A stretch of 64,000 nt of DNA from an uncultured Bifidobacteriaceae bacterium (GCA_964406645.1 CAYOSM010000001.1:5564-69563), one strand, 5' to 3'. Numbered from the stretch's first letter, positions 27,901-44,114 are shown. Made by a program: numbers and translations. Notes: generated by a model not told the origin, from the letters alone.

Positions 27901-30813
27901 GTGAGTATCGCGGCAGACAACGGACCGTTAGGGAAGCTCCGAGTCTTCGTCAGCTACGGCCATGATGAGCATTCCGAGCTCGCCGAGAAGCTGAGGCTCG
28001 ATCTTCTCGAACGCGGACATGAGGTCTGGTTCGATCAGACTGAGCTGACGGTGGGTGAGGACTGGGAGCTTCAGATCGAGACGGGCCTCGATTGGCTCGC
28101 CGAGAAACGCGATCGCGCGCGCATGATCGTGTTGATGACGCCGCATTCGGTCCGCCGACCGGATGGCTACTGTCTCAACGAGATCGCGCGGGCGGTCTCG
28201 CGTCGCATCGGCATCATCCCAGTGATGGTCGCGCAGTGCGAGCCGCCCTTGTCCATCTGCCGTATTCAGCATCTGGACATGTCGAGGTGCACTCCGGTGT
28301 CCGAGAAGGAGTCCGAGTACGCGGAGTCACTACGGGTGCTTCTCGGCGCGATCGAAGGGAAGGGGCCGGATGTTGAGGGATTCGCTGCACGGAAGGCGAC
28401 CGTACTCAACCCGATCGACTTCTCCGTCGAGCTGGCAGCCCACAAGGACTTCGTAGGACGCGGGTGGATCCTGAAGGAACTCGATTCGTGGATTAGGGAT
28501 CCAGACGGGAAGCCCGTGTTCACATTGGTCGCCCCACCGGGGTTCGGGAAATCGGCCCTGGCAGTCGAAGTGATACATCAGAGCGGGCACGTAACAGCGT
28601 TTCATATCTGTAACCACTCGAATCAGGAAAAGAATGACTCGAAGCGTCTCGTCATGTCGCTGGCGCATCAGATCTCGACCCAGATGCCGACCTATGACGC
28701 TGTGCTGAAGACGCTGGACCTCGACTACGTGGTCAACGAGTATGACGCAGCCACCCTCTTCGACGTTCTGCTTGCGACCCCGTGCGGGCAGATCCTGCCG
28801 CCCGGTCGGACGATGGTAATCGTGATCGACGGCCTGGACGAGGCGACGAAGGACGGCCGAAACCCCGTAGCCGAATTCGTCGCCGATCGCGCGGCGACGC
28901 TGCCCAATTGGATCCGGATTCTTGTGACGACGCGGCCGGAGCCTGAAGTGCTCGGTCCACTAGAGCCGCTGGGACTGCACCGAGTAGATCCACTCGACTT
29001 GGAGAATCGTGCGGATGTCCAGGACTACTTGAGGGCAAGAATCGGGGAGATCGATGCACCTGCGGCCGCGCATGAACACGCCGTCGATGTCGTCGCAGAA
29101 CGCTCGTCAGGCGTGATGCTCTATGCGCGCTCAGCATGCGAGATGCTGCACCGTGATGGCATCTCAGAAGAGAGCCTCAACGCGCTCCCGGACGGGCTTT
29201 CCTCTCTCTACTACCGCCAGTTCTCAGCACGGTTTCCCGATGTCGACCGCTACGGCTTCTCGGTCCGACCGATCCTCAGCTTGTTGATCGCGGCGTTTCA
29301 GCCGATCGGCTTTGACCTCCTGGCCGCGAGCCAGGGCACCTCTGAAGACGAACTCTGGCAGTCGATTCTCGGGCTTGGATCACTGGTGGTCGACAACGGT
29401 GACAGTGTCACCCTTCACCACAAGACACTGCGCGACTGGCTTTCAGACCGAAGAGCTGCCCATCGCTACTTCGTCTCGGAAGATGCCGGACACCGCTTGC
29501 TGGCATCGGCCACGGCGGAGTGGAAGAAGGTCCCACGCGAGGCTCGTCAGTATCTCTTCAAGTTCGGGCCTCGCCATCTGCTCCACGAACGTGACTGGGA
29601 CGGTTTGTTCCGGGTTATCCGGGAACCGCGGTTTGCCGAGGGGAGGATGCAGCTTCTCGACGACACCATTCGCGACCCGACCAAGACGGATCTGCTCTTA
29701 GACTTGGTCGAACACCTCGTGGATTCCGACGAATCGGGGCTGCTGGATGTCCTCATCGACCGTCTTCATGTCGCTGTCGAACTCGGGTTGTGGCATTCAG
29801 TGATGCCGATCGTCGATGAGGTCATGCTTGACCTGACGTCCGGTCAGCGGAACCGGATCGGGTTTCTTCGCGCCTGGTCGCTCCAAATGTCTGGGGATCT
29901 TGAGAGGGCTGTCGCCGCCTACGAAGACCTTGGAGACGACGTGGACGACCCAGACGGTCACATCGCGTTCAGGCGAGCTGACGCAGTACGCGAGGCCGGG
30001 AACTTCGACGAGGCATTTGAGACCTATCGGGATCTCCAATCACAGGCGGAGGCTCCGGTCCGCCTGCAAATCCTCTACGGGCAACAGTACGCAGACCTTC
30101 TGTATGTGCGCGGGCAGTACCAGGATGCGCTCGATGCTCTGAATACGGCCCTCGAGCGTGGGCACCGCGGGGCACCTGAGATGTTCGCTGAGGCACTCCG
30201 GATCCGTGGCCACATCCACCGCGTCATGCTGGATTCGCAGGAAGCTCTCGCTGACTACGCGGAAGCGCGCGAGATCTTTTCCGAGATCGGCCATCGTTCG
30301 GGAATCGCGCGCATCGAGACCAATCTCGCAGAGGTCTACGCTCTTACTGACCCCGATCGAGGAATCTGGCATGCCGAACAGGCCGCCCACCTGAACGGTG
30401 AGGTCGGCGCGAACCTAGAGGTCGGTAAGGCCATCCGAGCGAAGGGACTCGCCCTCGCCGCAAGAGGTTCCTATGGCGATTCGAGGAGCGTTCTTGATGT
30501 GGCTGAGAGTCGGCTTACCGAAGTCGGCTACGCCGCCGGAGTGTGTGAGACGCAAGCGAACAGAGTCGTCCTCCATGTGCTTGAGAAATCCATTGACGAC
30601 ACCCGGGATTTGATCGTCTCACTTGCTGGTCGGCTCAAGGCACTGAACGCTTATCCGTTGCTGGTTGTCCGTTCGTGCATTCTCCTTGGACGCCACGAAG
30701 CGCTCGATTCGACACTGGCGGCGATCGAGCGCACGTCGGCGGATGCCATTCAATGGCCGATCACTCGAGACGACTACGCGAATCGCCTCCTGGCGGGGCT
30801 AGGACTTTTGTGA
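27901..30813 (+). CDS. TIR-NACHT (STAND NTPase)-TPR protein (TIR-STAND 1)
   Basis: GTG start after GGGAGA. TIR-like LRVFVSYGHDEHSELAEKL...DWELQI...RMIVLMTPHSVRRPDGYCLNEIARA. Walker A VAPPGFGKSALA. NACHT-type Walker B MVIVIDGLDEA. TPR-like helical repeats in the last ~350 aa. Confidence 0.85.
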   Translation: MSIAADNGPLGKLRVFVSYGHDEHSELAEKLRLDLLERGHEVWFDQTELTVGEDWELQIETGLDWLAEKRDRARMIVLMTPHSVRRPDGYCLNEIARAVSRRIGIIPVMVAQCEPPLSICRIQHLDMSRCTPVSEKESEYAESLRVLLGAIEGKGPDVEGFAARKATVLNPIDFSVELAAHKDFVGRGWILKELDSWIRDPDGKPVFTLVAPPGFGKSALAVEVIHQSGHVTAFHICNHSNQEKNDSKRLVMSLAHQISTQMPTYDAVLKTLDLDYVVNEYDAATLFDVLLATPCGQILPPGRTMVIVIDGLDEATKDGRNPVAEFVADRAATLPNWIRILVTTRPEPEVLGPLEPLGLHRVDPLDLENRADVQDYLRARIGEIDAPAAAHEHAVDVVAERSSGVMLYARSACEMLHRDGISEESLNALPDGLSSLYYRQFSARFPDVDRYGFSVRPILSLLIAAFQPIGFDLLAASQGTSEDELWQSILGLGSLVVDNGDSVTLHHKTLRDWLSDRRAAHRYFVSEDAGHRLLASATAEWKKVPREARQYLFKFGPRHLLHERDWDGLFRVIREPRFAEGRMQLLDDTIRDPTKTDLLLDLVEHLVDSDESGLLDVLIDRLHVAVELGLWHSVMPIVDEVMLDLTSGQRNRIGFLRAWSLQMSGDLERAVAAYEDLGDDVDDPDGHIAFRRADAVREAGNFDEAFETYRDLQSQAEAPVRLQILYGQQYADLLYVRGQYQDALDALNTALERGHRGAPEMFAEALRIRGHIHRVMLDSQEALADYAEAREIFSEIGHRSGIARIETNLAEVYALTDPDRGIWHAEQAAHLNGEVGANLEVGKAIRAKGLALAARGSYGDSRSVLDVAESRLTEVGYAAGVCETQANRVVLHVLEKSIDDTRDLIVSLAGRLKALNAYPLLVVRSCILLGRHEALDSTLAAIERTSADAIQWPITRDDYANRLLAGLGLL

Positions 30814-31775
30814 ACAACGGCCCACGGACGATTGCGCTCGTCGGTCTCGGTGCCATTTCCACTACCCATGTCGCGGCGCTGAAACTCCTACCGGATGAGT
30901 TTCACCTTGTAGCGGCTTGTGATCCCGATGTGTCGAAGCACGATCACTTAGGTTGTCGGACGTTCGCCTCCATGGAAGCGATGGCCCGCGAAACGAGACC
31001 CGACGCGATCGTCGTGGCCACGCCACCCGGCACCCACTACAAGCTAGCGCGAGAAGCGCTCGGACTCGGCGCACATGTCCTGATCGAGAAACCGGCGACT
31101 CCCACACTGGACGAGTTCGACGATCTGTGTCGAGAAGCTGACAAAGCGGACAGGGTGCTCTACTCGGCGCTACATTTCAGTTTCGGGCGTGAACTCCTTT
31201 GGTTCGTCAACCACCGTGCTTCGATCGACTCCTCATGGGGGACCGTAACCGACATCGAGTGCGGATTCTTCGATCCATACATCGAGGAGGGCGAGGTCGT
31301 CCCCCGCGCAAGGGGCTTGGAAGGCAGCTGGTCTGATAGCGGGCCGAACGCGTTGAGCGTAGTGGCAGCGTTCTGTGACCATCTGAGCATGGTCGAGTGC
31401 AGTACCGAGCGGATTGACGGCTATCCGTTGGATGTTGCGGCGAGGAGCAGAGTCTCTTTTCGAGATCGTCGAACGGGCGCACCCGGTGAGGCCCACATCG
31501 TGACCGACTGGAGGCGGGGAATCAGCCGAAAGTCCACGACACTGCACTACACGGAGTCCCGCGAACGGATCGAACTTGATCACAGTATTGAACGCGTCAT
31601 CTCTCATGCCCCGGACGGAGCTACGCGAATCCTGTTTGAGTCCGACTGCCCGAACCACCACATGCTGGCGCACTACGAAGGGGTGTATAAGGATTTCGCT
31701 CGCTTCCTCCACCGTGGGCAGGACAATAGGGTGCTCGGCCGCGCGGTGGTTGATGCGACTCAGCTGTCGCGGTAG
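30810..31775 (+). CDS. Gfo/Idh/MocA-family NAD(P)-dependent oxidoreductase
   Basis: GTG at 30810 overlaps the TIR-NACHT stop (GTGA). Rossmann start IALVGLGAISTTHVAAL, then DAIVVATPPGTHYKLAREALGLGAHVLIEKP (EKP motif). The part of the track ORF before 30810 lies inside the upstream gene. Confidence 0.8.
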   Translation: MNNGPRTIALVGLGAISTTHVAALKLLPDEFHLVAACDPDVSKHDHLGCRTFASMEAMARETRPDAIVVATPPGTHYKLAREALGLGAHVLIEKPATPTLDEFDDLCREADKADRVLYSALHFSFGRELLWFVNHRASIDSSWGTVTDIECGFFDPYIEEGEVVPRARGLEGSWSDSGPNALSVVAAFCDHLSMVECSTERIDGYPLDVAARSRVSFRDRRTGAPGEAHIVTDWRRGISRKSTTLHYTESRERIELDHSIERVISHAPDGATRILFESDCPNHHMLAHYEGVYKDFARFLHRGQDNRVLGRAVVDATQLSR

Positions 31776-31993
31776 TTAGTCGCCCCGCGACGAGTAGACC
31801 GGGCATTTTCTCGGCTCGTTGAGTCACCCGTGTGGCTTCTATCAGCTACGGGTGCGATGAGATGAAGCTCCAGCAAGAAGTCCGGGCGATCGGTCCCAGC
31901 TACGGTCGTGGCTAGAGAGGTGCGCCGCTGAGACGACGTAGGCTTGCCGCCGGGCGCCAAGACCCGAGCTACGACCGAGGGAGAGGTTGCCAG

Positions 31994-34900
31994 GTGTTCG
32001 ACATCTTCATCAGTTACGCACGCCACGATGACAGCGACGGCTGGGTCACCGGTCTGCGAGATGTGATTGTCGCGGATTTCCAGCGGTTTGAGCGGACGCC
32101 ACGGATCTTCTTGGACCGCGAGGACATCCGTGACATGGACGATTGGCGGCACCGAATTCTGGTTGGCTTACGCGAATCACGGGTACTTTTGGTGTGTCTG
32201 TCGCCCGCGTACCTGAAGAGCGAGTACTGCCGGTGGGAGTGGCAGGAGTACGCGCGCCGACAGGCCCGGCTGGCGGGCGGAGGAGACACGGTCGCCGGGA
32301 TCTACTGCGTCGAGATGAACGATCCGGACACCGACGACGTCACCCAGTGGCGACGCGAAGTCGAAACCATCCAGATGACCGACGTGCGCCCCTGGTTCCC
32401 ACAGGGACGATCCGTGCTGGAACAGGACGCCGTCAAGGAGCGACTGTCGGCACTCGGCGAGAGCCTGTCGAAACGTCTGCAGCGCGCTCGGCTGGCACAG
32501 GATTCGCCGGGCAACCTGCAGCGATTCGATCCGTACTTCGTGGGCCGCAAACGCGAGCTGCACGCGCTGCGCGACAGCCTCAGCGCCGGCCGAGTCGGCA
32601 CCGTCACCGCGCTCAGCGGCCTCGGCGGCATGGGCAAGACCGAACTCGCCGTCATCTACGCACACGGCTACCGACACGCCTACCCCGGCGGCACCTGGCA
32701 GATCGGATGCGAGGGTGCAGCCGACCTGGTCGATGTGATCGCAAGCCTCGCCTTCGAACTCAACATCAACGCACCCGACGGAACCCCAACCGACGCCCGC
32801 GCACGCATGGTACTGAGTCGCCTCAGAGAACTCGCACACACACCACGCGAGGACACCCCGGACGACAGCCCGGAACCGGCGACACTTCTCTTGCTGGACA
32901 ACGTCTCGAAACAGAGCCTGTTCTCACCGGAGAGCCTGCGGATCCTGCCAGAGGAGTCCTGGCTACACGTCATTGCAACCACCCGGCTGGGTGAAACCGA
33001 CGTGCAGGCCGTCGGTGCGAAACCCTACGTCAATCTGCTGACGATCACGGCTCTCGACGCCGGTGACGCACTGGAAGTGATTCGCGATCACCAGGAACCC
33101 CGCGACACCGACCGGCTGCACCCCGACTTCGTCGATGCGGACGCCGAGCAGGAAGCAGGGGAGTTGGTCAACGTACTGCAGGGCTTCACGATGGCAGTCA
33201 AACAGGCAGCCGTGTACCTCGGTGCCAACCCCGACCTACGCCCCAGTGATCTCCTCAACACCTTGCACGACCACAGTGTCACCCATCTGGACGACCTGAC
33301 GTCGGAAACCCAGCGGCGCTCGGTGGGAGTGATCCTCGACCAAACCCTCGCCCAACTCACCCCGCGCTGCCTCGAAGCCCTCCAACTCGCCGCCCTCATG
33401 CCACCCGACCACATCGTCTGGCAATGGCTCGAAGAGTTCACCGCACACCTCGACGAAAACCACCCCGACGGCGAACGCTGGCCCGTCGTCCAACGCACAC
33501 TCCTAGGACGCCACCTCATCACCCCCGGCGACACGCTCGAGACGGCCCGCATCCACCGTCTCATCGCCGCCCATATCACCAACAACCTCAGCCCGCCTCA
33601 GGCCGCCGACATCACCGAACGATTCGACGCCTGGGTCGTCGAAGCCGCTGATATCTGCAGTGTCCAGGGCACCCGCCTGACACAGGCGTTCGTGGAACTC
33701 CTCATTCACCGCACCCCCCACAACACGGAGCTCACGCACCAGGCCGTCTACTACGCGCAGACCCTTTCCAGCCTCATCGACCTCGACCACCAAACGCGTC
33801 TGGCAGACACCCTCCACCACCAGCTACGCGGCCTCGCCACCCGCGACGACACCAACACACAGTGGCTCCGGGACCTCGCCGTCAGCCTCAACAACGTAGG
33901 AGACATCGCCACAGCTCAAGGAGAACTGGACAGTGCACACGACGCCTACCAAGAGTCCCTCGACACCATGCGCGAACTCGTCACCCGCGACCCCACCAAC
34001 ACCACCCGGCTCCACGATCTCGCCCGCAGCCTCCTCAACGTCGGAGACGTCACCCGAGCACGCGGCGACCTCGACACCGCCCACACAACGTTCCAAGAGT
34101 CCCTCAACACCATGCGCGACCTCGTCACCCGCGACCCCACCAACACCCAGTGGCTCCGCGACCTCACCATCAGCCTGGACAGAGTCGGAGACGTCACCCG
34201 AGCACGCGGCGACCTCGACACCGCCCACACAACGTTCCAAGAGTCCCTCGACATCCGGCGCGACCTCGTCACTCGCGACCCCACCAACACCACCTGGCTC
34301 CACGGCCTCTCTATCAGCCTCGGAAAGGTCGGTGACATCGCGCACGAACGTGGCGACCTCGACACCACCCAAGACGCCTACAGAGAGTTCCTCAACATCA
34401 TGCGCGAACTCGTCACCCGTGATCGCACCAACACACAGTGGCTTCGCGACCTCACCGTCAGCCTCAACAACGTCGGAGACGTCACCCGAGCACACGGCGA
34501 CCTCGACACCGCCCAATCCATGCACGAAGAATCCCTCAACACCCGGCGCGACCTCGTCACCCGCGACCCCACCAACACAGAATGGCTCCGCGACCTCACC
34601 ATCAGCCTGGACAGAGTCGGAGACGTCACCCGAGCACGCGGCGACCTCGACACCGCCCACACAATGTTCCAAGAATCCCTCGACATCCGGCGCGACCTCG
34701 TTACCCACGACCGCACCAACACCCAGTGGCTCCGCGACCTCACCATTAGCCTCGAGAGGGTAGGAGACGTCACCCGAGCATGCGGCGACCTCGACACCGC
34801 CCAATCCATGTACGAGAAATCCCTGGACATCATGCGCGACCTCGTCACCCGCGACCCCACCAACACGGAATGGCTCGGAGATCTCACCATCAGCCTTAAC

Positions 34901-35185
34901 AACGCCGCCGATATCGCCCTAGCTCGAGGAGACCTCGACACCGCCCAAGACGCCTACCAAGAGTCCCTCGGCATCTTGCGCGACCTCGTCACCCGTGACG
35001 ACACGAACACCAACTGGCTCCACGATCTTGCGTTCAACCTCGGCCGAGTCTGGAACGTCCACCACGAGAACGCACTCCTCGCAGAGGCCCGCACAATCCT
35101 CACGGAGCTTGGCGAGCGGGGCCTATTGTCGCCCGACGGCGTCGAAGTCCTCGCACAGATCAATACCATCCTCGACGCCGACTGA
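31994..35185 (+). CDS. TIR-NB-ARC-like (STAND)-tandem helical repeat protein (TIR-STAND 2)
   Basis: GTG start after GGGAGAGG. TIR-like FDIFISYARHDDSDGW...VLLVCLSPAYLKSEYCRWEWQEY. FVGRKRELHAL; Walker A GLGGMGKTELA; Walker B TLLLLDNV. C-terminal 8.5 copies of a 48-aa repeat. Confidence 0.88.
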   Translation: MFDIFISYARHDDSDGWVTGLRDVIVADFQRFERTPRIFLDREDIRDMDDWRHRILVGLRESRVLLVCLSPAYLKSEYCRWEWQEYARRQARLAGGGDTVAGIYCVEMNDPDTDDVTQWRREVETIQMTDVRPWFPQGRSVLEQDAVKERLSALGESLSKRLQRARLAQDSPGNLQRFDPYFVGRKRELHALRDSLSAGRVGTVTALSGLGGMGKTELAVIYAHGYRHAYPGGTWQIGCEGAADLVDVIASLAFELNINAPDGTPTDARARMVLSRLRELAHTPREDTPDDSPEPATLLLLDNVSKQSLFSPESLRILPEESWLHVIATTRLGETDVQAVGAKPYVNLLTITALDAGDALEVIRDHQEPRDTDRLHPDFVDADAEQEAGELVNVLQGFTMAVKQAAVYLGANPDLRPSDLLNTLHDHSVTHLDDLTSETQRRSVGVILDQTLAQLTPRCLEALQLAALMPPDHIVWQWLEEFTAHLDENHPDGERWPVVQRTLLGRHLITPGDTLETARIHRLIAAHITNNLSPPQAADITERFDAWVVEAADICSVQGTRLTQAFVELLIHRTPHNTELTHQAVYYAQTLSSLIDLDHQTRLADTLHHQLRGLATRDDTNTQWLRDLAVSLNNVGDIATAQGELDSAHDAYQESLDTMRELVTRDPTNTTRLHDLARSLLNVGDVTRARGDLDTAHTTFQESLNTMRDLVTRDPTNTQWLRDLTISLDRVGDVTRARGDLDTAHTTFQESLDIRRDLVTRDPTNTTWLHGLSISLGKVGDIAHERGDLDTTQDAYREFLNIMRELVTRDRTNTQWLRDLTVSLNNVGDVTRAHGDLDTAQSMHEESLNTRRDLVTRDPTNTEWLRDLTISLDRVGDVTRARGDLDTAHTMFQESLDIRRDLVTHDRTNTQWLRDLTISLERVGDVTRACGDLDTAQSMYEKSLDIMRDLVTRDPTNTEWLGDLTISLNNAADIALARGDLDTAQDAYQESLGILRDLVTRDDTNTNWLHDLAFNLGRVWNVHHENALLAEARTILTELGERGLLSPDGVEVLAQINTILDAD
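33851..35070 (+). repeat. In-frame 144-bp tandem repeat array (8 full + 1 partial units) encoding TNTxWLRDLxxSLxxVGDVxRAxGDLDTAxxxxxESLxxxRDLVTRDP
   Basis: The same motif recurs at 33991 and 34135 (144-bp offset) and onward. Several 35-40-nt stretches are identical or nearly identical between units (e.g. gacctcgacaccgcccacacaa[c/t]gttccaaga[g/a]tccctc at ~34070, ~34210, ~34640). This produces the pile of shadow ORFs in all frames. Confidence 0.9.
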
Positions 35186-35193
35186 CGCGGCCG

Positions 35194-36636
35194 TCACCCC
35201 GCGCGCAGGGCTCCGACGTCGAAGGTCGTCAGTAGGTGCCGGGCCGCCGTGTGCTGGCGCTTGAAGGGTCGCACCGTCACGACGATACCGTTGGTCGGGT
35301 TGGCACCCCGCACCGCATCGACGACCACACCTTTCCCCTCTAACAGTTCCTCGAACGCGGCGGTGATCTGCTTCACCGATGTCGATGTCTTCGCGATGGT
35401 CACCACCAGGACGTAGCGATGGTCGTAGATCCGCACCTGAACCCCGGAGCGCACGAACTCCGCGTAGAGATCCACCAGCCCTGACTCTTCGTACACCCGG
35501 ACCGATGTCGGCACCGACGGTGTCGACCGCGGCCGAACGCCCGGAGGCCGCACAAGGCGCTCGAGCACCACGGGCAGAGGATCGCGCTCGAGATCCTCCG
35601 CGTCCACGACCTGGATCCCGTACTCCCAGCACAGACTGCGGAACTCCTGCGCGATCCGCTGAAGAGGACGAAGCAGGATGTACTGATCTCCTCCATCGCC
35701 GAGCTGCCGACGCGTGGCATACGCCTCCCGGATCTGAGTGCTCAGCGGAAGTGCCCGCTCCTCGTCCATCAGTTTGCAGTCGATGACGTGGAGCCGGCCT
35801 CGTGAGTTGACCACGACATCGACCTCCTGCACGCGGAGTATCCCGTCGTAGAGAACCGCGCTCACCGCGACGTCGTCGGCCGCCACCCCCATACCGCGCA
35901 TCAGCGCCATGACGAACTGCTCGAAGACATGTCCCCCCTGGATCCGGTCCTTGGTGTCCTCGACCGCTTGCGTGAAGTGCGTGTACCAGCTCGGCGGATC
36001 GGCGAGCGCCTGAGCGGCGGCAGCCTCGACCTCGGGGTCGATCTCCGTGTGCTGCGCCCGCACCGTCCGTTCCTCATCGGCCCAGGTGACGTTCAGCAAC
36101 GACGCGACCGAGAACCGCTCGATCGCACGGTCGTCGTAGCCGGCCAGTTCACGGATGGCCCCGCCCGACAACAGCTCGTACCATGGCGGCCCTTCCGCAT
36201 CGCAATAGACGACCCGTACGCGCTCCGACCGGTCCGCGAGGCGGGCCGCACCCGCGAACATCAGCCGCGTGCCACCGGAGGCGACGACCAGCCAGTCGCG
36301 CTCGGCGGCCGACGCGTTGATCGGATCGACGACAGCGGCCACGACCGCAGGAGGATCGTCATCGGGAATCGGCTCGTGCCGATGCACGGCGATCCCAGGA
36401 AAACTGTCGGTGATGAAGGCCTCGAGACGGTCCTCGGGGCCACCGGGCTCGTTGTCGCCGTACGCCGTGATCAGGTGCACATCACGGACCCCCTCACCCC
36501 ACTGGGCCAACGCGTCCAATTGACGCCACAGCCCTTCACTCGCAAACATCACCATGCCATCAGGCTGGCCCAGTTGATCCATGCTTTCCGTCTCCATGTC
36601 GGTAACCGCGCCAAGACGCCGTTGACCTCGGGCCAA
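35194..36636 (-). CDS. Card1/Can2-like CARF + PD-(D/E)xK (DUF1887-type) nuclease with extra C-terminal domain
   Basis: The N-terminal Rossmann-like block ends in WLVVASGGTRLMFAGA (CARF GGT[KR] loop). Nuclease block GHVFEQFVMALMRGMG...VQEVDVVVNSRGRLHVIDCKL...QLGDGGDQYILL...YGIQVVD. ~110 unassigned aa follow. The start is uncertain (M1, M14 or M19). Confidence 0.7.
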   Translation of the reverse strand: MARGQRRLGAVTDMETESMDQLGQPDGMVMFASEGLWRQLDALAQWGEGVRDVHLITAYGDNEPGGPEDRLEAFITDSFPGIAVHRHEPIPDDDPPAVVAAVVDPINASAAERDWLVVASGGTRLMFAGAARLADRSERVRVVYCDAEGPPWYELLSGGAIRELAGYDDRAIERFSVASLLNVTWADEERTVRAQHTEIDPEVEAAAAQALADPPSWYTHFTQAVEDTKDRIQGGHVFEQFVMALMRGMGVAADDVAVSAVLYDGILRVQEVDVVVNSRGRLHVIDCKLMDEERALPLSTQIREAYATRRQLGDGGDQYILLRPLQRIAQEFRSLCWEYGIQVVDAEDLERDPLPVVLERLVRPPGVRPRSTPSVPTSVRVYEESGLVDLYAEFVRSGVQVRIYDHRYVLVVTIAKTSTSVKQITAAFEELLEGKGVVVDAVRGANPTNGIVVTVRPFKRQHTAARHLLTTFDVGALRAG

Positions 36637-36696
36637 GATTACTCGGGCGCTGCTCTGGGCCGCGCACTCAGCAGCATGTCCCCTGACGTAGGCGAA

Positions 36697-36715
36697 GGCA
36701 TGACGGCGTCATGCC
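36697..36715. other. Short hairpin GGCATGAC-ggc-GTCATGCC in the spacer between the SLOG-RyR gene and the CARF-nuclease gene
   Basis: 8-bp perfect stem read from the sequence; located in the 354-nt minus-strand intergenic spacer. Confidence 0.3.
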
Positions 36716-36990
36716 CATCCCCCCACAAGAGCGGACGGTATCCAACTCCGTGGTCCTGTCGATGTGCATTTGACGACGACCGGTGCAATACCCGATGTCC
36801 CGAGGGTTTCATCTCGATCCAGAGCGTGTCTCGTCGGGTTATCCAGACCGGACGCATCGGAGCACACGAGGCCCGACACGGGCGCGTTGGCAAGACCTTT
36901 CGAGGCAAAGCTAAACACACTCATAGGCATCATCACGCGATCATCCTGGGAGTGAGCACCGCGTACAGGACGAATCCGAAGAACGCACGC

Positions 36991-39822
36991 TCATTCATCG
37001 CGGACGAGAACGTACCCGCATCGCTCCGCCTCGTAGAGAGCTGCGAGGACTGTCCGGCGATCCTTCACCCGCTCGTCCTCGGCGAGGACGTCCCAGGGTA
37101 TGAGCACCTGCGTCGTCATCCGGATGGGGTTCCGCACCCCGTCACTCCAACCGCTGAGCAGACGCTCGCTGCAGTAGCGACCATGCTCGAGTTCGGCCAG
37201 ACGGTCGAGCGTCTTGCCGGGAGCGGTCTCGGTTCCGAGGGCGCCGGTGGGCACCGCGTGCACCGCAGACCCATGCGTGGTGCGCTGCAGACGCAACCCC
37301 TCCCTGGCGAGTTTCAACGCCAGGTCGTCAGCGACCGCGATATTCGAATCGCGCAGGTTCTGGGGCTGCCCCTCCCAGGATCTCATGGCGATGTCGTCCG
37401 GCATCTGGGTCTCGGCTTTGACATACGCCATGTGGACGGCCCGCCCGATGCGCTGGCGCTCCTCCTCATCCGGCCAGGTCGCGAAGCGGAGAAAAGAGCG
37501 GATGGTCGCTCGATCATCGATCAGGCGGACGACACCCTGATCGCCACCCGGCAGTTCCTCGTCCCAGTCGGTCTCGTCGCCAGGAAGGGGAAGCCAGCCC
37601 ACCCGAACGTTCAGCGCGCGGGCAATCATGACTTCCCTGCGGGTGATGGGGCCCCCTGAACAGACGATGACGCGCACGTCGTTAAGGTCCACTCCGGAGC
37701 GCGCGATGTCCTCCCATCCCGCAATCGCCTGTTCGATCGAGCCTTCTGCTCCAACCTCACTGCGGCGGTCACGATGGTACCCGTCGTGAAAAGTCGCCCC
37801 TCGCCACGCATATCCGGCCGCGTCGAGGCCGAGTTCCTCGGCCACATCGCCGATAACACCGGGCAAACCACTCTCTGTTCCGCCGCTGACGACGACACCC
37901 TCGAACTGAGGCGCACCGAGGGCGAACGAGAGCGTCGCACGAAGCCAGTCCTTGATGTCCTTGGCGTCCTTCCGCTCGTCGAGCGACTTCGCGCCACCGG
38001 CGAACACAGCCACTGGGCCACGCATGGGATGACGATCCGAGGCCTTCCCGTCGCGGGGCAACAGGCATTCATCACGATCGTCGTGTGTCTCCGACAGGAA
38101 GGCGATCCGGACACCGAGGATCCTGCGGATCCACCCTGCCATCGGTACGTCCGGATTCCGCACTTCGGCCATGTCATTCCACAGATCGATCAGTGCCGCC
38201 CGATCCGTTGAACGACGAATGACCTCACACCACAGCATCAGGGCAGCCTCATCGTGCGCACCGTCGGTGAGCAGACACTGAGCAATGCGGGAACGCGCAT
38301 CCACCCGATCGATGGAGAGATCAATGGAGGCATCCTCCAAGAGGTCGGGAAGACCCGGGTTGATCGCTTCGACTACCGCTCGGGCACCGGCCCGGAAATG
38401 GACGAACTCGCGGGTAACCGCCGCCGTTCTGAGAAGGTCGATCCCCTTGAGCTCCTGGCCCTCATTCTCCTCTCGAAGGCGCTCATCAATGGGCTGCCTT
38501 CTCAACAGGTCGAGGTCCGCGGAGGTCTCCTCGATGTCGACCGGCCCCTCCGATATCCGGCCGGCGAACCCGTGGATCCGCGAGCCGACCCAGTGGAGAT
38601 CCACCGAATCGCCGAGGCACCCCTTCAGCCCACCGACGATGGTCTCGACCCCCGCGACCTCATCCCCGGCCACCACAAGGTGCATGGGTTCCCGCCAGGC
38701 GGCGATCCTCCGACGGATCGCCGACGGAAGACCATCCTGGTCGACCTCACAGGGTGCGGCCTCCACCTCCGGAATGCCCAAAGCACCCTCGTACAACGGA
38801 CGCAGCCGATCGACGAACGCTTCGGCATCCGGCGCCATCACCGTGACAATCCTCCACCCCTGTCCTTCCTCCTTCCGTCGGCGCGACCGAGTCACCCGCA
38901 GAGCCTCAAAGATCAGGGCGCGAGTGAATGGTCCGGCGCCGACGATCAGAAGACGCTTTCCGTCGCATTTGCCTACCGACGAATGGAGCTTCGCCGCCGC
39001 GATCACCTCGGCTCGACACGCGACCACGGTTCGCGACTCGCCGTTGGATGATTCGTCGTTGGATCCACACACGACGGCGGATCGCGGCTCCTCGTTCGTC
39101 ACCATCTCGGCAAGCGCACGATCCGCCAGACAGACATACACGGGGATGGCGTGCGGACCGACCGCGCGAGATCCGACATCCCGCATACACCATCCCTGAA
39201 ACGGGACGTACGCCTGGGTTCCCGGACGGGCTGCCAGTAGAGAATCCGCCACGTCGATGCTGAGTTCGTCGTCCCCGGTGGCAACCACAACGTTCTCAGC
39301 CCGGTGGGCAGCGGCGCGGGCCCGGATATCAGAGGCGAGCAACTCGACGGACACCGTCCTCACACCCTCACGACGAAGCGCGGCCAGGATCTGCGGATCA
39401 CCACCGTCATCGGCGACAACAACCTTCCGCTCAGCCACCTCATGGCGGGCGAGTGCCACAGCGAACGGACTCAATCCGATGATGAGCAGGTGACCGCGCG
39501 AGAGGCGTGTCCACAGGTTGCGTACCCGCTCGGAGAAAGTGGCGACCAATCCACCCACGAGAAGGATGGGCGCAAGAAGTCCCGCCAACAACAGGAGCCA
39601 GGGAGTCCCTACGCCGTCCGGCACCGCCATCCCCGCAAAGAACAGCGTGAACACCCGGTACAGGATTCCCCGGAACCCCGGTTCCTGCCCCGCGGGCCAG
39701 TCCACCTGGAGGTATCCGATGACGCCCACCACGGACACGACCAGTACCGCCATGAGCAGGGCCACGTACTCCGGGGAGCGGCGCCACCACGATCGAGATC
39801 GTCCTTCACCGCGAGATGTCAT
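36991..39822 (-). CDS. 2TM - tandem Rossmann (TrkA-N/RCK-like) - SLOG (LOG/DprA-like) - RyR domain protein
   Basis: Two N-terminal hydrophobic helices (YVALLMAVLVVSVVGVIGY; WLLLLAGLLAPILLVGGLVA). GxGxxG-like HLLIIGLSPFAVAL and RLLIVGAGPFTRAL. SLOG-like VAVFAGGAKS...GVVVSGGTESGLPGVIGDVAEE...VIVCSGGPITRREV. C-terminal RyR-like LAELEHGRYCSERLLSGWSDG...LIPWDVLAEDERVKDRRTV. Confidence 0.65.
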   Translation of the reverse strand: MTSRGEGRSRSWWRRSPEYVALLMAVLVVSVVGVIGYLQVDWPAGQEPGFRGILYRVFTLFFAGMAVPDGVGTPWLLLLAGLLAPILLVGGLVATFSERVRNLWTRLSRGHLLIIGLSPFAVALARHEVAERKVVVADDGGDPQILAALRREGVRTVSVELLASDIRARAAAHRAENVVVATGDDELSIDVADSLLAARPGTQAYVPFQGWCMRDVGSRAVGPHAIPVYVCLADRALAEMVTNEEPRSAVVCGSNDESSNGESRTVVACRAEVIAAAKLHSSVGKCDGKRLLIVGAGPFTRALIFEALRVTRSRRRKEEGQGWRIVTVMAPDAEAFVDRLRPLYEGALGIPEVEAAPCEVDQDGLPSAIRRRIAAWREPMHLVVAGDEVAGVETIVGGLKGCLGDSVDLHWVGSRIHGFAGRISEGPVDIEETSADLDLLRRQPIDERLREENEGQELKGIDLLRTAAVTREFVHFRAGARAVVEAINPGLPDLLEDASIDLSIDRVDARSRIAQCLLTDGAHDEAALMLWCEVIRRSTDRAALIDLWNDMAEVRNPDVPMAGWIRRILGVRIAFLSETHDDRDECLLPRDGKASDRHPMRGPVAVFAGGAKSLDERKDAKDIKDWLRATLSFALGAPQFEGVVVSGGTESGLPGVIGDVAEELGLDAAGYAWRGATFHDGYHRDRRSEVGAEGSIEQAIAGWEDIARSGVDLNDVRVIVCSGGPITRREVMIARALNVRVGWLPLPGDETDWDEELPGGDQGVVRLIDDRATIRSFLRFATWPDEEERQRIGRAVHMAYVKAETQMPDDIAMRSWEGQPQNLRDSNIAVADDLALKLAREGLRLQRTTHGSAVHAVPTGALGTETAPGKTLDRLAELEHGRYCSERLLSGWSDGVRNPIRMTTQVLIPWDVLAEDERVKDRRTVLAALYEAERCGYVLVRDE

Positions 39823-40095
39823 CAGCTATCCAGACTCCGAGCACGCACAGTTACCGATCGCCGGAGAAGATAATGGACGCGCACGACCCAGATCACCGGT
39901 GCTCAATCGATTCGTGCGTCTCCCGCACAGACGATTCCACACCGCGTGTGGGGCATCGGCACTGGGCTACTCTCGGACTATCACGATGCAGGGGGAATCC
40001 TGAACGATCATCTCCGGAGTTGCGCGGAGGCCGGGATTCCGGCAGGAACCGTCAGCGGTGGTACGTAGGGTCGAACTGACAACGCGACACCACCC

Positions 40096-41193
40096 GTGAC
40101 ATTGACACCCTTGCCGGGCGACGTCCCAGTGGTGCCACCGGAACATCAACGGATCACCAGTAGCATCACGAATGGCCGTCGCAGCGGCGGCCGCAACCCG
40201 TACTCATCACCCACAGCAAGGCTACACGTGACCATTCCCCCACCTGCCTTCGGATGTTCTCCGTCCCACGATCAGATCGTGGAGGACATATCCCGCTGGT
40301 TGGCAGCACCCGCTCTCCACGAACTCCTGACGCGGTTCGGAGGGCCGACCCCGGCTAACGTCGACGATCTCGATCACGTCGCCGAATGGGCCGCGACGCA
40401 CTGGGATTTCCGGTCCGGCAGAGAGCGGAACCTGGTCCACGCGAGTGAGGTTGCAGCCGGAGATGAGGAACTCATCGTCGCGTGCGCCGACGAACTCGGC
40501 TTGGTCACCCCGAGGAAACCCGAGCGCGACTCCTACGACGCGATCGCCATGCTGGGAGGACTGATCCGTGCGTGCGTCTGGCGACCAGAATATGCGGCCC
40601 ATCTGGTCGCCCAGGGCGTACGCGCCAATAGCGTCGCCGCCATCTCGGGCTTCCGCACCCTCAACGATGCCGAGACCGTGATGCTCCCCGCGTTCGGGCT
40701 GAACGGCGTGACGGAAGAACACCAGGTGATGGAAGGCGCGCTGCGGACGGCGTTCGGGATCGACACCATGGACGACCGGATTCCCCTGGATGAGACGCTG
40801 CCGCCGAATCTGCGGCACTACGTGCGCACCGGACAGAGTTCGTCCGGAGTGCCCGCGATGATGGTCGTCGCACCGTCGACCGATCCTTCCCGCCGCGCGA
40901 ACACTCCGGACGGATACACGTACTGGTCGACTGAGGTCGCACATCTGCGCCCCGGTGACCGCGTGCTCCTCGTCACGACCCAGATCTACCTGCCGTTCCA
41001 ACATGCCGATGCCATCCGCATTCTGGGACTCACACAGGGATGCATCATCGAAACCGTCGGTGTCGACCGCGACGCGGTGGACGACCGCGGCCACGACCAA
41101 CCGTTCACGGGGGTCAACTACCTGCAGGAGATCAACTCGACCCTGAGGTCGTACCGAGGACTCATCGCCGTCGTCGAAGGCCAGAACCTCTGA
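40096..41193 (+). CDS. DUF218 (YdcF/SanA/ElyC)-like Rossmann-fold protein
   Basis: YDAIAMLGG, ISGF, TEEHQV, RANTPDG and VLLVTTQIYLPFQHADAIRILG follow the order of conserved DUF218 blocks. The stop overlaps the TIR-STAND 3 start (TGATG). The start is uncertain (track start 40096; GTG 40228 possible). Confidence 0.5.
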   Translation: MTLTPLPGDVPVVPPEHQRITSSITNGRRSGGRNPYSSPTARLHVTIPPPAFGCSPSHDQIVEDISRWLAAPALHELLTRFGGPTPANVDDLDHVAEWAATHWDFRSGRERNLVHASEVAAGDEELIVACADELGLVTPRKPERDSYDAIAMLGGLIRACVWRPEYAAHLVAQGVRANSVAAISGFRTLNDAETVMLPAFGLNGVTEEHQVMEGALRTAFGIDTMDDRIPLDETLPPNLRHYVRTGQSSSGVPAMMVVAPSTDPSRRANTPDGYTYWSTEVAHLRPGDRVLLVTTQIYLPFQHADAIRILGLTQGCIIETVGVDRDAVDDRGHDQPFTGVNYLQEINSTLRSYRGLIAVVEGQNL

Positions 41194-44114
41194 TGCCCCT
41201 GCCGTCCTACCACGACGTCTTCATCTCGTACGCCAGCGAGGACCTCCACACGGCGACCCGGTTGCGGGATGCCCTAGACGTGCACGACTGCTCCGTGTGG
41301 CTCGACAAGGTCGAGATCAGAGATCTTGACCCCATAACCGAACGTCTGGAGAACGGCGTCAATCGCAGCCTGCTGACGGTGGTGTTGGTGTCAGCGAGCC
41401 AGATGTCCTCCCGCGTGTGCCGATGGGAGATACTCCGATCCCTTGCACTAGGCGACGCGCGCGGGTACGACCGGATCGATCTCGTCCAGATCGATGACGC
41501 GCTGGCCGACATGTCGCCATCACCGCGTCGCCGTCGATCCATCGATCTGCGCACGACAGCCGTCGATGACGCGGCAGCGGCTTTGTTCGAACGCGTCAAG
41601 GAGGCCCGCGCACTCGACACGGACGCGTGGGGTGAGGAGGACGCGATTGATACGACGGTGAAACGCGGGATTCCTGGAGGCTCTGGGCACCGCTACTTCG
41701 GCCGTCTCCCCGAGCTCCAGGCGATCTACGACAGCCTCTGCGGCCCATGGCGGCACATGGATCGAGGGCACATCTCGCGCCACGATGCCTGCGTCGTCCA
41801 GGGCATGGGAGGCGTCGGCAAGAGCATCCTGGCCACGTTCTTCGCAGAGCAGTTCGCCCGGTCCTTCTCCGGTGGCGTCGTCTGGCTGGGTGCCGGCGGC
41901 GACCAGGTCGACAACGATGCGGCCTCCCTTGAGGCGAAGGACGAGACGTTCCTCCGCCTGGGTGACGCGGTCCTGGAATGCGCATCCGAGCCACCCGTCA
42001 TCGTCATCCCGACGGAAGCGGTGCCCATCGAACCACGCAAACGATGGCGTCATCTGTGCCAGGAGGTTGTACCCGAGTTCGGCCAGGGACAACGAACACT
42101 CCTCATCATCGATGACCTGCCGAGGGGCATCGATGCGAAGGACGTCTGCCCGGACGCCGAGAACGTCGCGGTCCTGATCACCGCACGGGATGCCGTACAC
42201 GCCGCTCAGGGCATCCACCTGGTGAAACTCGAGCCGTTCGATATCGATGAGGGTGTGCTCTTCCTCGCGGACGCACTCGACCCGACGCGCTCGATCAGGC
42301 GTGCCGGCGGTGATCCATTCGATGGAGAGGCGAAGCAGGCCCGTGCTCTGGTGGAAGCCGTCGGAAGTCATCCCCTCGCGCTGGATCTCCTCGCCGTTCG
42401 CATCATCGAGCAGAGGGACCGGATCGCGGATCTGCTCCACGAGATCGAGGCCCAGGCAGAGAGGTTCCTTGACCTTCCCGCATACGCCGCCGACCTGCCG
42501 ACCCAACACACACCGAGTATCCTCGCAACGGTGAGCGGGTCGCTCCGAAGTCTTCACTCGACCGACGCTGCCGGGGTGGTCCTGCCCATGTTGCGGGCGA
42601 TGATGGTTCTGCCCGCCGGTCAGGCGATCCCGCATGACCTGATGGAGAGAGTGGCCGGACACGACGCCCGAAGTGGCGCACACGTGCTGCATGACCGGTC
42701 GGTCGCCAAACTGGATCACGATGGCATCCGATTCCACGCCCTCACCCGTGGAGTGGCGCGGATCCTTTGGGACCAGCAGAGTGAGCCCTTCGGAAGCTGC
42801 CGCGAGATGGAACCGGGTCTCTCACTCACGATCGCAACCTGGTTACATGAGACGGCAGAGGAGGAGGGCCTGACGCCCACGGCACTTCGACTCGCCCGCG
42901 AGCTCATCGACGTGATCGACGACGTCACCGTCACGTTTCCCGACGCCGTCGGGCCCGATCAGCGTCGGCAGCGCAGCGAAGCATGGTTGCGACTCGCCCG
43001 TGAACGCAACCGCACCCCCGCCCCTCTCACCGACAAGGATCCGGAGGCCGCTGAGCAATGGGCCAAGGATCTGGAGGCCGCTGAGCAATGGGCAGAGGAG
43101 GCGAAGCGCGACCTCCCCAAGGGCCGGCCGGATCTGGAGGGAATGCAGTGGTGGCGAGCGGAGGCGATGCAGGCCCTCCTCCGCTCAAAGCTCAACGAGC
43201 AACGCATCAAGAAAGGAGATGCCGAGGCACGGAAGCATGTACTGGTCATCCTCGAACGCTTGATCCGATCGGCCGAGGTGCGTGAGGAGTACGCAGAAGT
43301 GCTCCTCGCAGACCCCGCGATCGACGAAGCGTCACGGGATTGGATCGCCGTCAACCGCATGGCGGCGAAAGGGAACCTTCCCGGTCGATACCTCGACATC
43401 GCGAAACTCCACGCTGATGACGGAGCCAGCGACGACACGGTCGGGGAATATCTCGACCTCATGGAGCTGACGCATCACGAGCTGATCGTACTCCGGGAGG
43501 CGCACACGAATCCTCGGATCGCCGACCTGGCAAGCAACCACGAAGGTCTCGGGTCGGTGGCCTATCATCGCGCCGTCCTACTCACCGAGTCCGGCTCGGC
43601 CAAGACCCAGCACCTTCGATCCGCCCTTGCCCCGCTGATCGAGAGCATCCAACTGCGAACGAGCGTGAAGAACCTGCAGGACGAGGTCGACATCTCGAAG
43701 TCGCTGCGGCTGCTACTCAAGGTCACGGTCGCGATCGCGGCGCTCGACGGCGGACCGCAAGAGGCTCAATCACTCCTCACCGACCACCACGCCACCGCCG
43801 CTTCCGAGGTGAGCGCGTTGGAGCCCGGCGACTACCGCGGCGGACCGGGGTCGGCCGAACAGGCAACCCGTGACCAGACAGCGGCGGGACGCTACCGAGA
43901 CGCCCAGGCCCGGTCGATCCTGGACGCCGGCGACGTGACCGCACCGGACATCGCTGGCCTGATCGGAGCGTGCGTCAGGTGGCTTGTTGTCGCGGATGAG
44001 CGCACAGCCGATCCGGAGGGCCGACAGGCACGCCGTGTGACCGTGGACGACGTTGCCAAGGCCCTGTTCGACATCGACAACGAGATCGCGCGGATGATGG
44101 ACACGATGGCGTAG
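41193..44114 (+). CDS. TIR-NB-ARC-like (STAND)-helical sensor protein (TIR-STAND 3)
   Basis: ATG 41193 (MPLPSYHDVFISYASEDLHTA). TIR-like LLTVVLVSASQMSSRVCRWEILRSL. YFGRLPELQAIYDSL; Walker A QGMGGVGKSILA; Walker B LLIIDDLP. Helical C-terminal ~450 aa. The 51 codons before 41193 in the track ORF lie inside the upstream gene. Confidence 0.85.
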   Translation: MPLPSYHDVFISYASEDLHTATRLRDALDVHDCSVWLDKVEIRDLDPITERLENGVNRSLLTVVLVSASQMSSRVCRWEILRSLALGDARGYDRIDLVQIDDALADMSPSPRRRRSIDLRTTAVDDAAAALFERVKEARALDTDAWGEEDAIDTTVKRGIPGGSGHRYFGRLPELQAIYDSLCGPWRHMDRGHISRHDACVVQGMGGVGKSILATFFAEQFARSFSGGVVWLGAGGDQVDNDAASLEAKDETFLRLGDAVLECASEPPVIVIPTEAVPIEPRKRWRHLCQEVVPEFGQGQRTLLIIDDLPRGIDAKDVCPDAENVAVLITARDAVHAAQGIHLVKLEPFDIDEGVLFLADALDPTRSIRRAGGDPFDGEAKQARALVEAVGSHPLALDLLAVRIIEQRDRIADLLHEIEAQAERFLDLPAYAADLPTQHTPSILATVSGSLRSLHSTDAAGVVLPMLRAMMVLPAGQAIPHDLMERVAGHDARSGAHVLHDRSVAKLDHDGIRFHALTRGVARILWDQQSEPFGSCREMEPGLSLTIATWLHETAEEEGLTPTALRLARELIDVIDDVTVTFPDAVGPDQRRQRSEAWLRLARERNRTPAPLTDKDPEAAEQWAKDLEAAEQWAEEAKRDLPKGRPDLEGMQWWRAEAMQALLRSKLNEQRIKKGDAEARKHVLVILERLIRSAEVREEYAEVLLADPAIDEASRDWIAVNRMAAKGNLPGRYLDIAKLHADDGASDDTVGEYLDLMELTHHELIVLREAHTNPRIADLASNHEGLGSVAYHRAVLLTESGSAKTQHLRSALAPLIESIQLRTSVKNLQDEVDISKSLRLLLKVTVAIAALDGGPQEAQSLLTDHHATAASEVSALEPGDYRGGPGSAEQATRDQTAAGRYRDAQARSILDAGDVTAPDIAGLIGACVRWLVVADERTADPEGRQARRVTVDDVAKALFDIDNEIARMMDTMA

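Follow-up and report, generated by a model that had tools for sequence, protein, structure and literature searches.

STAND-fused TIR genes and a SLOG-RyR membrane protein gene in an actinobacterial-type genomic island: a candidate Thoeris-like signalling pathway interleaved with a CARF nuclease module

Type I Thoeris consists of a small TIR protein, ThsB, and of ThsA, which joins a SIR2 and a SLOG domain; in its proposed logic, a cyclic ADP-ribose (cADPR) isomer made by the TIR switches on the effector. A survey of TIR signalling recognized 29 putative Thoeris types, after the TIRs of the Avs/STAND group had been removed as presumed effectors depleting nicotinamide adenine dinucleotide (NAD) (10.64898/2025.12.03.692087). 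Here, we describe a region of a 64,000-nucleotide stretch of DNA from an uncultured Bifidobacteriaceae bacterium (GCA_964406645.1, CAYOSM010000001.1:5564-69563; hereafter the window, with positions counted from its first letter), in which three genes for TIR-STAND proteins (T1, T2, and T3) lie near the genes for a CARF nuclease and for a membrane protein with SLOG and RyR domains (the SLOG-RyR protein). The best explanation, with a probability of about 0.55, is that two modules are interleaved here, and that the STAND-fused TIRs would signal to the SLOG-RyR membrane protein, leading to abortive infection. The evidence from sequence comparison is broad and two-directional, and fits recent biochemistry. 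The system is most likely a Thoeris-like pathway, or a Thoeris variant, in which TIRs of the nucleotide-binding leucine-rich repeat (NLR) type signal to RyR-domain effectors, and no description of it was found.

The locus shares with Thoeris systems in general a TIR domain with a Glu at the catalytic position and a separate sensor-domain gene that is conserved beside the TIR gene, the two being neighbours in the window and not members of one operon. As in Type I, a TIR with the catalytic Glu stands beside a separate sensor protein of the SLOG superfamily, and the proposed logic is the same. However, the window TIRs form part of larger proteins with STAND NTPases and TPR sensors whereas ThsB is small, and the window SLOG is of the LSDAT/TRPM type, is followed by an RyR domain, and belongs to a protein with a transmembrane (TM)/TrkA_N effector part. 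ThsA is recognized by a SIR2 domain or TM segments together with a ThsA-type SLOG; the window protein has no SIR2 domain, and no PADLOC or NCBIfam model matches it. Type III Thoeris groups several TIR proteins with one SLOG effector, its signal being uncharacterised (van den Berg et al. 2024, as summarized in 10.64898/2025.12.03.692087). Going by that summary, the window has a similar grouping of TIR genes with one SLOG effector; in a comparison confined to the TIR side, however, the window TIRs are STAND-fused, and they score 29.9, 19.3, and 18.9 bits with the NCBIfam ThcB4 model (NF058526), whose cut-off is 220 bits. Type X Thoeris (Yirmiya et al. 2025, preprint), compared by its description, likewise combines a TIR gene with a predicted ion-channel effector and an unknown signal, but Avs/STAND TIRs had been removed from its survey, and the available part of that source mentions no RyR, NUDIX, or TrkA. 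Finally, the N-terminal TIR, the central STAND P-loop NTPase with its Walker A and Walker B motifs, and the C-terminal repeat sensor of Avs/bNACHT TIR-STAND proteins are all found here. Those proteins are nevertheless described as single-gene systems with the TIR as NAD-depleting effector, whereas the subtypes described here are conserved beside a second, ligand-sensor protein. RyR, NUDIX, TrkA, and CARF go unmentioned in the available text and supplements of the TIR signalling survey (10.64898/2025.12.03.692087). A full-text literature search combining Thoeris and RyR, which did not cover Burroughs et al. 2015 on SLOG/LSDAT families (a source that may mention such neighbourhoods), returned five papers, the three listed among them being the two phage RyR papers and an unrelated review.

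RyR domains were linked to TIR signals first in 2026, and until now just as phage counter-defence. Some phage proteins with an RyR Repeat12 domain are enzymes that cleave 2'cADPR and 3'cADPR, others bind and sequester these molecules with nanomolar affinity, and both activities block Thoeris; their ligand residues follow the pattern H-x-x-W ... H ... D (PMC13232231; 10.64898/2026.06.04.730250). In RyDEP, the cleaving cADPR-isomer glycosidase, these residues are the dyad H75/D117, the stacking W78, and H100; among eight phage RyR homologues assayed, six bind signals and none cleaves them despite high conservation with RyDEP (PMC13232231). The window RyR domain belongs with RyDEP and the RyR Tad proteins to Pfam family PF02026 and has the same H-x-x-aromatic ... 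D pocket pattern. However, those are small phage-encoded counter-defence proteins that bind or cleave 2'/3'cADPR, whereas the window domain is host-encoded, forms the C-terminus of a large multidomain protein close to TIR genes, and has the phosphate-binding His replaced. A more distant likeness exists with animal TRPM2 (LSDAT/MHR plus NUDT9H) and ryanodine receptors, in which SLOG, NUDIX, and RyR Repeat12 parts recur on ion-conducting membrane proteins. The channel cores differ, prokaryotic loci encode the parts in separate genes, and the likeness is drawn from structural matches.

A preliminary description of the window had proposed the three TIR-STAND open reading frames (ORFs). They are intact, as are those of the CARF nuclease and the SLOG-RyR protein, and every motif quoted for them is present in the translations (TIR_2 E-values from 1e-13 to 1e-17). 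T1 (27901-30813, plus strand, 970 amino acids, aa) is composed of a TIR domain (Pfam TIR_2, E 2.3e-17), a STAND P-loop NTPase (NPHP3_N/AAA_16), a winged helix, and TPR repeats. It carries the motifs FVSYGHDE, YCLNEIA, GFGKS, and IDGLDEA, with E94 (codon 28180-28182) as the catalytic-position Glu and K217 as the P-loop Lys. The sole PADLOC match among the three TIR-STANDs is a marginal one of T1 to Avs1b (E 1.3e-4), over the NTPase. T2 (31994-35185, plus strand, 1063 aa) combines a TIR domain (TIR_2, 1.3e-13) with an NB-ARC-like NTPase, which matches FxSxx_TPR and AfsR-type NB-ARC models, and with TPR_12/TPR_10 repeats (TPR_12, 7e-34); its motifs are FISYARHD, YCRWEWQ, GMGKT, and LLLDNV, and the two key residues are E82 (codon 32237-32239) and K215. 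T3 (41193-44114, plus strand, 973 aa) has a TIR domain (TIR_2, 6.6e-16, with a further match to ThsB_TIR), an AAA_16/NB-ARC-like NTPase matching both Pfam models, and a helical C-terminus without recognised repeats. Its motifs are FISYASED, VCRWEIL, GVGKS, and LIIDDL, with E79 (codon 41427-41429) and K210. The Glu of the C-x-x-E element had been proposed to occupy the catalytic position, and in PDB alignments it does fall, in all three proteins, on the Glu of the W-x-x-E motif found in AbTIR-like TIRs and in ThsB1. T1, T2, and T3 are distant relatives of one another: identity between T2 and T3 is 26%, and BLAST matches T1 to neither of them.

The T3 type was not seen in related loci, T3 having weak matches at best in the fetched loci. 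Its C-terminal region contains a 30-nt tandem duplication in perfect register (43034-43093, 97% identical), encoding KDPEAAEQWA and KDLEAAEQWA. Directly upstream, an ORF for a 365-aa protein, u365 (40096-41193, plus strand), shows the codon GC pattern of a real gene (0.77 at third positions), without a match in Pfam, PADLOC, NCBIfam, or PDB sequences and without a homologue in any fetched locus. The u365 stop and the T3 start overlap in the sequence TGATG, so that the two genes are probably co-translated.

The predicted effector is encoded on the minus strand at 36991-39822 (943 aa, or 920 aa if the start of the public record is used). From its N-terminus, it comprises a first TM segment, a pore-like segment, and a second TM segment (about 39532-39771), then a TrkA_N (RCK) Rossmann domain (39226-39486), a second Rossmann-like domain, and a helical linker, followed by an LSDAT-type SLOG domain (about 37498-38025) and an RyR Repeat12-like domain with H880, Y883, and D921 (about 37003-37455). 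A word-indexed homologue search returned the protein itself alone and a 51-sequence profile three proteins; hence an exhaustive HMMER search was used, which gave 2332 relatives with a common core at residues ~595-927. When 51 relatives were compared with Pfam, RyR was found in all 51, TrkA_N in 36, RelA_SpoT in 14, and LSDAT_prok in 13 (best E 3e-8). The family profile matches a Bacteroides RyR protein (5e-18), Repeat12 of animal RyR2 (6e-12), and TrkA (1.4e-14). An AlphaFold 2 (AF2) model of residues 590-943 (predicted local distance difference test score, pLDDT, 85.5) resembles human RyR3 Repeat12 bound to ADP, as well as the N-terminal SLOG of TRPM2/TRPM4 and LOG-like molybdenum cofactor carrier proteins. 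The SLOG and RyR assignments are thereby confirmed at family level and by predicted structure. In the RyR pocket, H880-G-R-Y883 and D921 lie at positions matching the ligand residues of RyDEP, and in the family H880 is invariant and D921 nearly so. The match of the AF2 model places the window SLOG close to the MHR1/2 region of TRPM2, which is an ADP-ribose (ADPR)-binding site. The SLOG-RyR module also occurs in other fusions: in 14 of the 51 relatives (alignment A2) it is joined to RelA_SpoT and TPR, as in L102:6284-8929 (L-numbers are the labels of fetched homologue loci), and in the genome loci L057, L066, and L077 and the metagenome locus L119 a NUDIX domain is fused to it. The RelA_SpoT part could be a toxic effector of the (p)ppApp/ppGpp type or a second nucleotide generator.

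Linkage of SLOG-RyR genes to TIR genes was assessed in both directions. In the forward direction, species-representative genomes encoding the SLOG-RyR module, located with an 8-sequence alignment, provided 80 loci from Actinomycetota, Verrucomicrobiota (including Lentisphaerae and Kiritimatiellia), Planctomycetota, Bacteroidota, Fibrobacterota, and Methanobacteriota (a Methanobacterium metagenome-assembled genome, MAG). Neighbouring ORFs were clustered, and hidden Markov models (HMMs) were built from the recurrent ones, namely a small NUDIX hydrolase, DUF4062-NACHT/nSTAND1 proteins, TIR-NB-ARC-TPR proteins, and AAA-RyR proteins. At 300 bp or less from the SLOG-RyR gene, a TIR_2 gene is found in 11 of these loci; the number rises to 19 at up to 1.5 kb and to 28 at up to 10 kb, and the density of TIR ORFs is about five-fold higher at 0-1.5 kb (9.1 per 100 kb) than at 5-10 kb (1.9 per 100 kb). 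The most frequent single neighbour is the NUDIX gene, found within 300 bp in 31 loci; DUF4062-STAND genes are present in 12, and either TIR or DUF4062 in 38 of 76. Many TIR/SLOG-RyR pairs are co-directional and overlap or are separated by less than 50 bp, tight operons of this kind being found in L023, L020, L007, L008, L076, L031, L037, and L080, among others. All 37 TIR candidates submitted from these neighbourhoods match Pfam TIR_2, and the sole invariant column of their alignment is the catalytic Glu.

Two of the window TIR-STANDs have relatives in these neighbourhoods. The TIR HMM built from the TIR-NB-ARC-TPR neighbours matches T2 (1.9e-39), and the TIR domains of these neighbours, including those from distant phyla and from the archaeon, are 42-45% identical to that of T2; the best full-length relative of T2 is 40% identical over 911 aa (L091). 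In the Methanobacterium sp. MAG (L020:8546-13515), a gap of 45 bp separates the SLOG-RyR gene from a downstream relative of T1 (33% identity over 557 aa), so that the TIR-STAND/SLOG-RyR pairing crosses the boundary between bacteria and archaea. A second class of STAND partner is formed by DUF4062-NACHT/nSTAND1 proteins, often with WD40, whose genes share operons with those for RyR-domain and NUDIX proteins (L025, L030, L031, L036, L037, L080, L083, L119, L125, and L133).

In the reverse direction, a metagenome scan with the T2-type TIR gave 80 loci. An RyR-domain gene was found in 2 of 29 loci of less than 5 kb, 3 of 21 of 5-10 kb, 2 of 15 of 10-15 kb, and 11 of the 15 that are at least 15 kb long, mostly 0-1 kb upstream and on the same strand. 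T1-like genes lie beside T2-like genes in L133, L095, and L138, a T1-like TIR fragment is present in L141/L142, and L133 and L141 each combine T1-like, T2-like, and RyR genes; single co-directional arrays of T1-like, T2-like, DUF4062-STAND, and RyR genes are found in L133, L119, and L125, for example. Across the loci compared, T1 and T2 are RyR-linked TIR-STAND types, T2 being the one most tightly linked to RyR-domain genes elsewhere, and T3 falls outside this result. Such conserved pairing argues against the T1 and T2 types acting as single-gene systems. The linkage to TIR genes that the preliminary description had proposed to look for thus holds on the SLOG-RyR side, in both directions, with a bias to short distances and across at least six phyla.

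Pfam comparison of ten partners from the reverse loci showed that RyR is their constant domain, joined to N-terminal parts of three kinds: TM-TrkA_N without SLOG (~600 aa), AAA/nSTAND5 (900-1200 aa), and RelA_SpoT-TPR-LSDAT. The SLOG domain, which the preliminary description had named as the sensor, is indeed present in the window protein, but RyR, not SLOG, is what TIR-linked partners have in common. In CARF, SAVED, and ThsA-type SLOG effectors, a constant ligand-binding domain is combined with interchangeable output domains beside a nucleotide-producing enzyme. By analogy, the RyR partner behaves like a sensor-effector fusion, with a constant RyR carried on TM-TrkA_N, AAA/nSTAND5, RelA_SpoT-TPR-SLOG, or NUDIX.

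The CARF nuclease tells a different story. Encoded at 35194-36636 on the minus strand, with Met14 or Met28 of the ORF as its likely start, it is a Card1/Can2-like protein with a CARF and a PD-(D/E)xK nuclease domain plus an extra C-terminal domain of ~110 aa. Its Pfam match is weak (Card1_endonuc, E 0.0075), but PADLOC recognizes it as CARF4--CARF_PDDEXK (5.6e-9), a profile of 28 homologues matches Can2 (7bdv, 2.4e-8) over both the CARF domain (GGT-K/R) and the nuclease domain, and its AF2 model (pLDDT 89.9) matches Card1, VC1899, Can2, Cdn1, and Can1 with Foldseek E-values of 1e-14 to 1e-10. Key residues are SGGTR (R124), E239, D273, D286, and K288, the E...D...D-x-K of the nuclease being invariant in the family. 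On this sequence and model evidence, the identification, already made in the preliminary description, is secure. Thus the protein resembles Card1/Can2 in its GGT(K/R)-bearing CARF and its nuclease (Foldseek E 1e-14 to 1e-12), but differs in belonging to long forms with the extra C-terminal domain, in the lack of type III CRISPR genes in the window and in 8 homologue contexts, and in its conserved partners, a HerA/VirD4-like ATPase and a DUF5663 protein.

The family is small (28 clusters, chiefly Nocardioides). No TIR_2 gene was found in 8 distinct homologue contexts (~154 kb), whose Pfam lists also hold no cas family, and the CARF nuclease is likewise missing from the 160 RyR and T2-type loci, so that the proposal of a TIR-linked CARF effector gains no support from the neighbourhood comparison. 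The nuclease travels with the ATPase and DUF5663: the operon of L006 has the order CARF, 137 aa, ATPase, DUF5663 (10001-14050), its ATPase being 47% identical to that of the window; the nuclease is again in operon with the pair in L089/L090 (L089:5162-9571) and lies near it in L088 (1038-11146). In the window, the HerA/VirD4(TrwB)-like ATPase (24758-27271, plus strand, Pfam) and the DUF5663 protein (27268-27606, plus strand, Pfam) are separated from the nuclease by T1, an oxidoreductase gene, and T2, and since these genes split the set, the interleaving of two modules is the simplest reading. We judge from the gene contexts that nuclease, ATPase, and DUF5663 form a separate Nocardioides-type module outside the TIR/RyR system; with no cas10 or CD-NTase in sight, it could be an undescribed CARF-based module. 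Around the homologues, a Sa_NUDIX gene (PF18167; 11208-12011) follows the nuclease in L087, and in L002 the next gene (4253-5149) has a sub-threshold match to cREC_REC (cyclic-phosphate processing), a hint of nucleotide-signal turnover around the CARF nuclease. In L001, the CARF homologue has upstream of it a gene for 882 aa that was considered as a SLOG-RyR relative, but BLASTP showed no similarity.

Building on the domain identities, the catalytic-position residues, and the gene linkage, we infer a pathway for the first module, which would consist of T1, T2, probably T3 with u365, and the TM/TrkA_N/SLOG/RyR protein, as a Thoeris-like NAD-signalling system. T1 and T2, and perhaps T3 with u365, would be NLR-type sensors whose TPR or helical C-termini recognise an invader. 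Oligomerisation of the STAND NTPase would then gather the TIR domains into an active NAD-cleaving assembly, which would consume NAD and also set free a nucleotide derived from ADPR, a cADPR isomer being the most plausible candidate. This nucleotide would be bound by the cytoplasmic SLOG-RyR module and would switch the channel-like TM/RCK part, so that ion homeostasis collapses and infection is aborted. The RyR domain may also hydrolyse the signal and thereby limit the response, as the His/Asp pair that is catalytic in RyDEP is kept, and the adjacent NUDIX of most relatives would complete signal removal. The second module, made of the CARF nuclease, the ATPase, and DUF5663, would be unrelated to the first and interleaved with it. 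A wider form of this reading, in which NLR-type TIRs of bacteria and archaea are generators of signals and not terminal NADases, with a cADPR-type product gating host RyR-domain effectors and NUDIX as off-switch, is advanced tentatively, at somewhat less than even odds. With the same reserve, the effector so gated in the window would be the SLOG-RyR protein with its RCK-regulated, channel-like membrane part.

Several observations weigh against a STAND-fused TIR signalling to the SLOG-RyR protein. Within the window, the RyR gene shares an operon with none of the TIR-STAND genes: T2 and the CARF gene, which lies in between, are convergent (8 nt between stop codons), and T3 is divergent from the SLOG-RyR gene. 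The statement of the preliminary description that the TIR-STANDs surround the other two genes is therefore right as topology but not in the sense of an operon. In about half of the SLOG-RyR loci, neither a TIR nor a DUF4062 protein is encoded within 10 kb, which implies that the SLOG-RyR partner can work with other inputs or alone. DUF4062 could not be counted as TIR-like (hhalign probability 1.4%), and some of the metagenome loci are duplicates (L102/L103/L105; L141/L142). As to the protein itself, its own Pfam scores are below threshold (RyR, 20.6 bits against a cut-off of 27.4; LSDAT_prok, 17.6 against 25.4). In its RyR pocket, Tyr883 takes the place of the stacking Trp, and at the position of the second, phosphate-binding His the family has Ser/Thr and the window protein Val. 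The channel is the weakest step. Two TM segments flank a hydrophobic loop and TrkA_N is present, but the protein falls short of a Kch/MthK-type RCK-gated channel, since the pore-like segment lacks the K+ selectivity filter (TVGYG), with AGMAVPDGVG at the filter position, no Pfam Ion_trans_2 match was obtained, and the GxGxxG motif of the first Rossmann domain is degenerate.

Other explanations of the same genes have to be weighed. TIR-STAND proteins of the Avs type are generally taken as self-contained NADases (10.64898/2025.12.03.692087), and T1 to T3 might accordingly be autonomous, Avs-like NAD-depleting killers. The RyR protein and the NUDIX of most relatives would then be no effectors but would guard or regulate the cell by binding and hydrolysing stray products of the TIRs, RyR acting as glycosidase and NUDIX as ADPR pyrophosphatase, so that autoimmunity is prevented or the cell is reset after the response. 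The glycosidase activity of RyDEP, whose His/Asp dyad is conserved here as H880 and D921 (PMC13232231), agrees with this, as does the NUDIX gene's place as most frequent close neighbour, sometimes fused. A simple detoxifier would not, however, need 600-1200 aa with membrane/RCK, AAA, or RelA_SpoT domains, a variety that is the usual mark of effector domains joined to a sensor; moreover, the phage homologues that were assayed bind without cleaving (PMC13232231), and the window has no NUDIX gene, an absence that leaves the proposed off-switch of the signalling pathway without a counterpart there as well. Taken together, we consider the safeguard unlikely, while giving it serious weight. Distinctly more doubtful is the idea that TIR-STAND and RyR-domain genes are independent systems that merely co-accumulate in defence islands. 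The window does lie in an island of more than 50 kb, low in GC and packed with conflict-type genes, the TIR density of 1.9 per 100 kb still seen at 5-10 kb from SLOG-RyR genes suggests clustering at the level of islands, and about half of the SLOG-RyR loci do without TIR or DUF4062. Mere co-location would not readily account, however, for the five-fold proximity bias and the overlapping or closely spaced pairs on one strand, nor for the pairing of one TIR subtype with RyR in distant phyla and an archaeon, nor for a linkage that holds in both directions; CARF-nuclease islands of similar character, by comparison, have no TIR in 154 kb.

The model of the preliminary description, in which one diffusible signal made by the TIR-STANDs feeds both the CARF nuclease and the SLOG-RyR protein, had in its favour the position of the CARF gene between T2 and the SLOG-RyR gene, co-directional with the latter, and the want of another signal generator: in line with its statement, a repeat scan found no CRISPR array in the 64 kb, and no Cas10 or CD-NTase was among the ORFs submitted to Pfam and PADLOC. 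The L002 context can be added, where a DUF4062 protein is the divergent neighbour of the CARF gene and a weak, Pfam-negative match to the SLOG-RyR module (E 9e-7) lies 8 kb away. The lack of TIR_2 genes in the 8 CARF contexts and of the CARF nuclease in the 160 RyR and T2-type loci nevertheless speaks against a shared signal, as do the conserved operon partners of the nuclease. Its nearest solved relatives (Card1, Can2, Cdn1, and Can1) were crystallised with cyclic tetra- or tri-adenylate (cA4 or cA3), and we know of no TIR domain that makes cyclic oligoadenylates. That both proteins answer to one signal is consequently very improbable.

The remaining genes describe the setting of the locus. 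Between T1 and T2, a GFO/IDH/MocA-family NAD(P)-binding oxidoreductase is encoded at 30675-31775 on the plus strand (Pfam GFO_IDH_MocA, 8.7e-24), its true start being probably downstream of the T1 stop codon. No homologue was found in the T2-type loci and a single weak match (E 1.4e-5) in the RyR loci; judged by these loci, it is no conserved part of the TIR/RyR system. The window DNA is of a high-GC, actinobacterial type, and the nearest relatives of the island genes are from Nocardioides. As GC content falls by 5-10 points at ~12 kb, from 0.71 to 0.61-0.67, and stays low to the end of the window (12000-64000), the five-gene region lies within the island mentioned above. No integrase or tRNA gene was seen in this low-GC part, nor any tRNA gene or CRISPR-like repeat array in the window as a whole, and plasmid searches at DNA and protein level gave no match. 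Most large ORFs at 15-24.5 kb have no Pfam or PADLOC match. The FtsK/SpoIIIE protein encoded at 56633-59506 hints at an integrative or conjugative element of actinomycetes. Downstream of T3, a module of Ser/Thr kinase, PP2C, FHA, ClpB-like AAA_2, and radical SAM (Fer4_12) genes (45503-53538) is common to the window and to L005 (10822-18451), where it comes directly after the CARF nuclease homologue; its AAA protein matches the PADLOC candidate PDC-M37B (1e-28). PADLOC matches to mad6 and mad8 had raised the MADS system, which was rejected as generic kinase/ATPase similarity (74 bits against an NCBIfam cut-off of 460); no other mad gene was found in the window, and mad8 came up again just as a generic ATPase match on the FtsK/SpoIIIE protein.

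If the reading of STAND-fused TIRs as signal generators for RyR-domain effectors is true, these TIRs, now set aside as self-contained NAD depleters, would join the signalling class, and bacteria would have a relay from TIR-NLR to downstream effector like that of plant TIR-NLRs (TNLs) and their helper channels. RyR would take a place next to CARF, SAVED, and SLOG as a new sensor domain, one for messengers of the cADPR type, and the host RyR effectors encoded beside TIR genes would be the missing host side of the phage RyR story. The combination of a TRPM2-type SLOG, NUDIX, RyR, and a channel-like part would also allow the long-debated direct action of cADPR and ADPR on RyR and TRPM to be tested simply, and the compact operons of L125, L031, and L080 and the archaeal L020 suit such a test. 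Signalling of this kind would, finally, make a plausible ancestor of the animal logic in which cADPR and ADPR act on the ion channels RyR and TRPM2.

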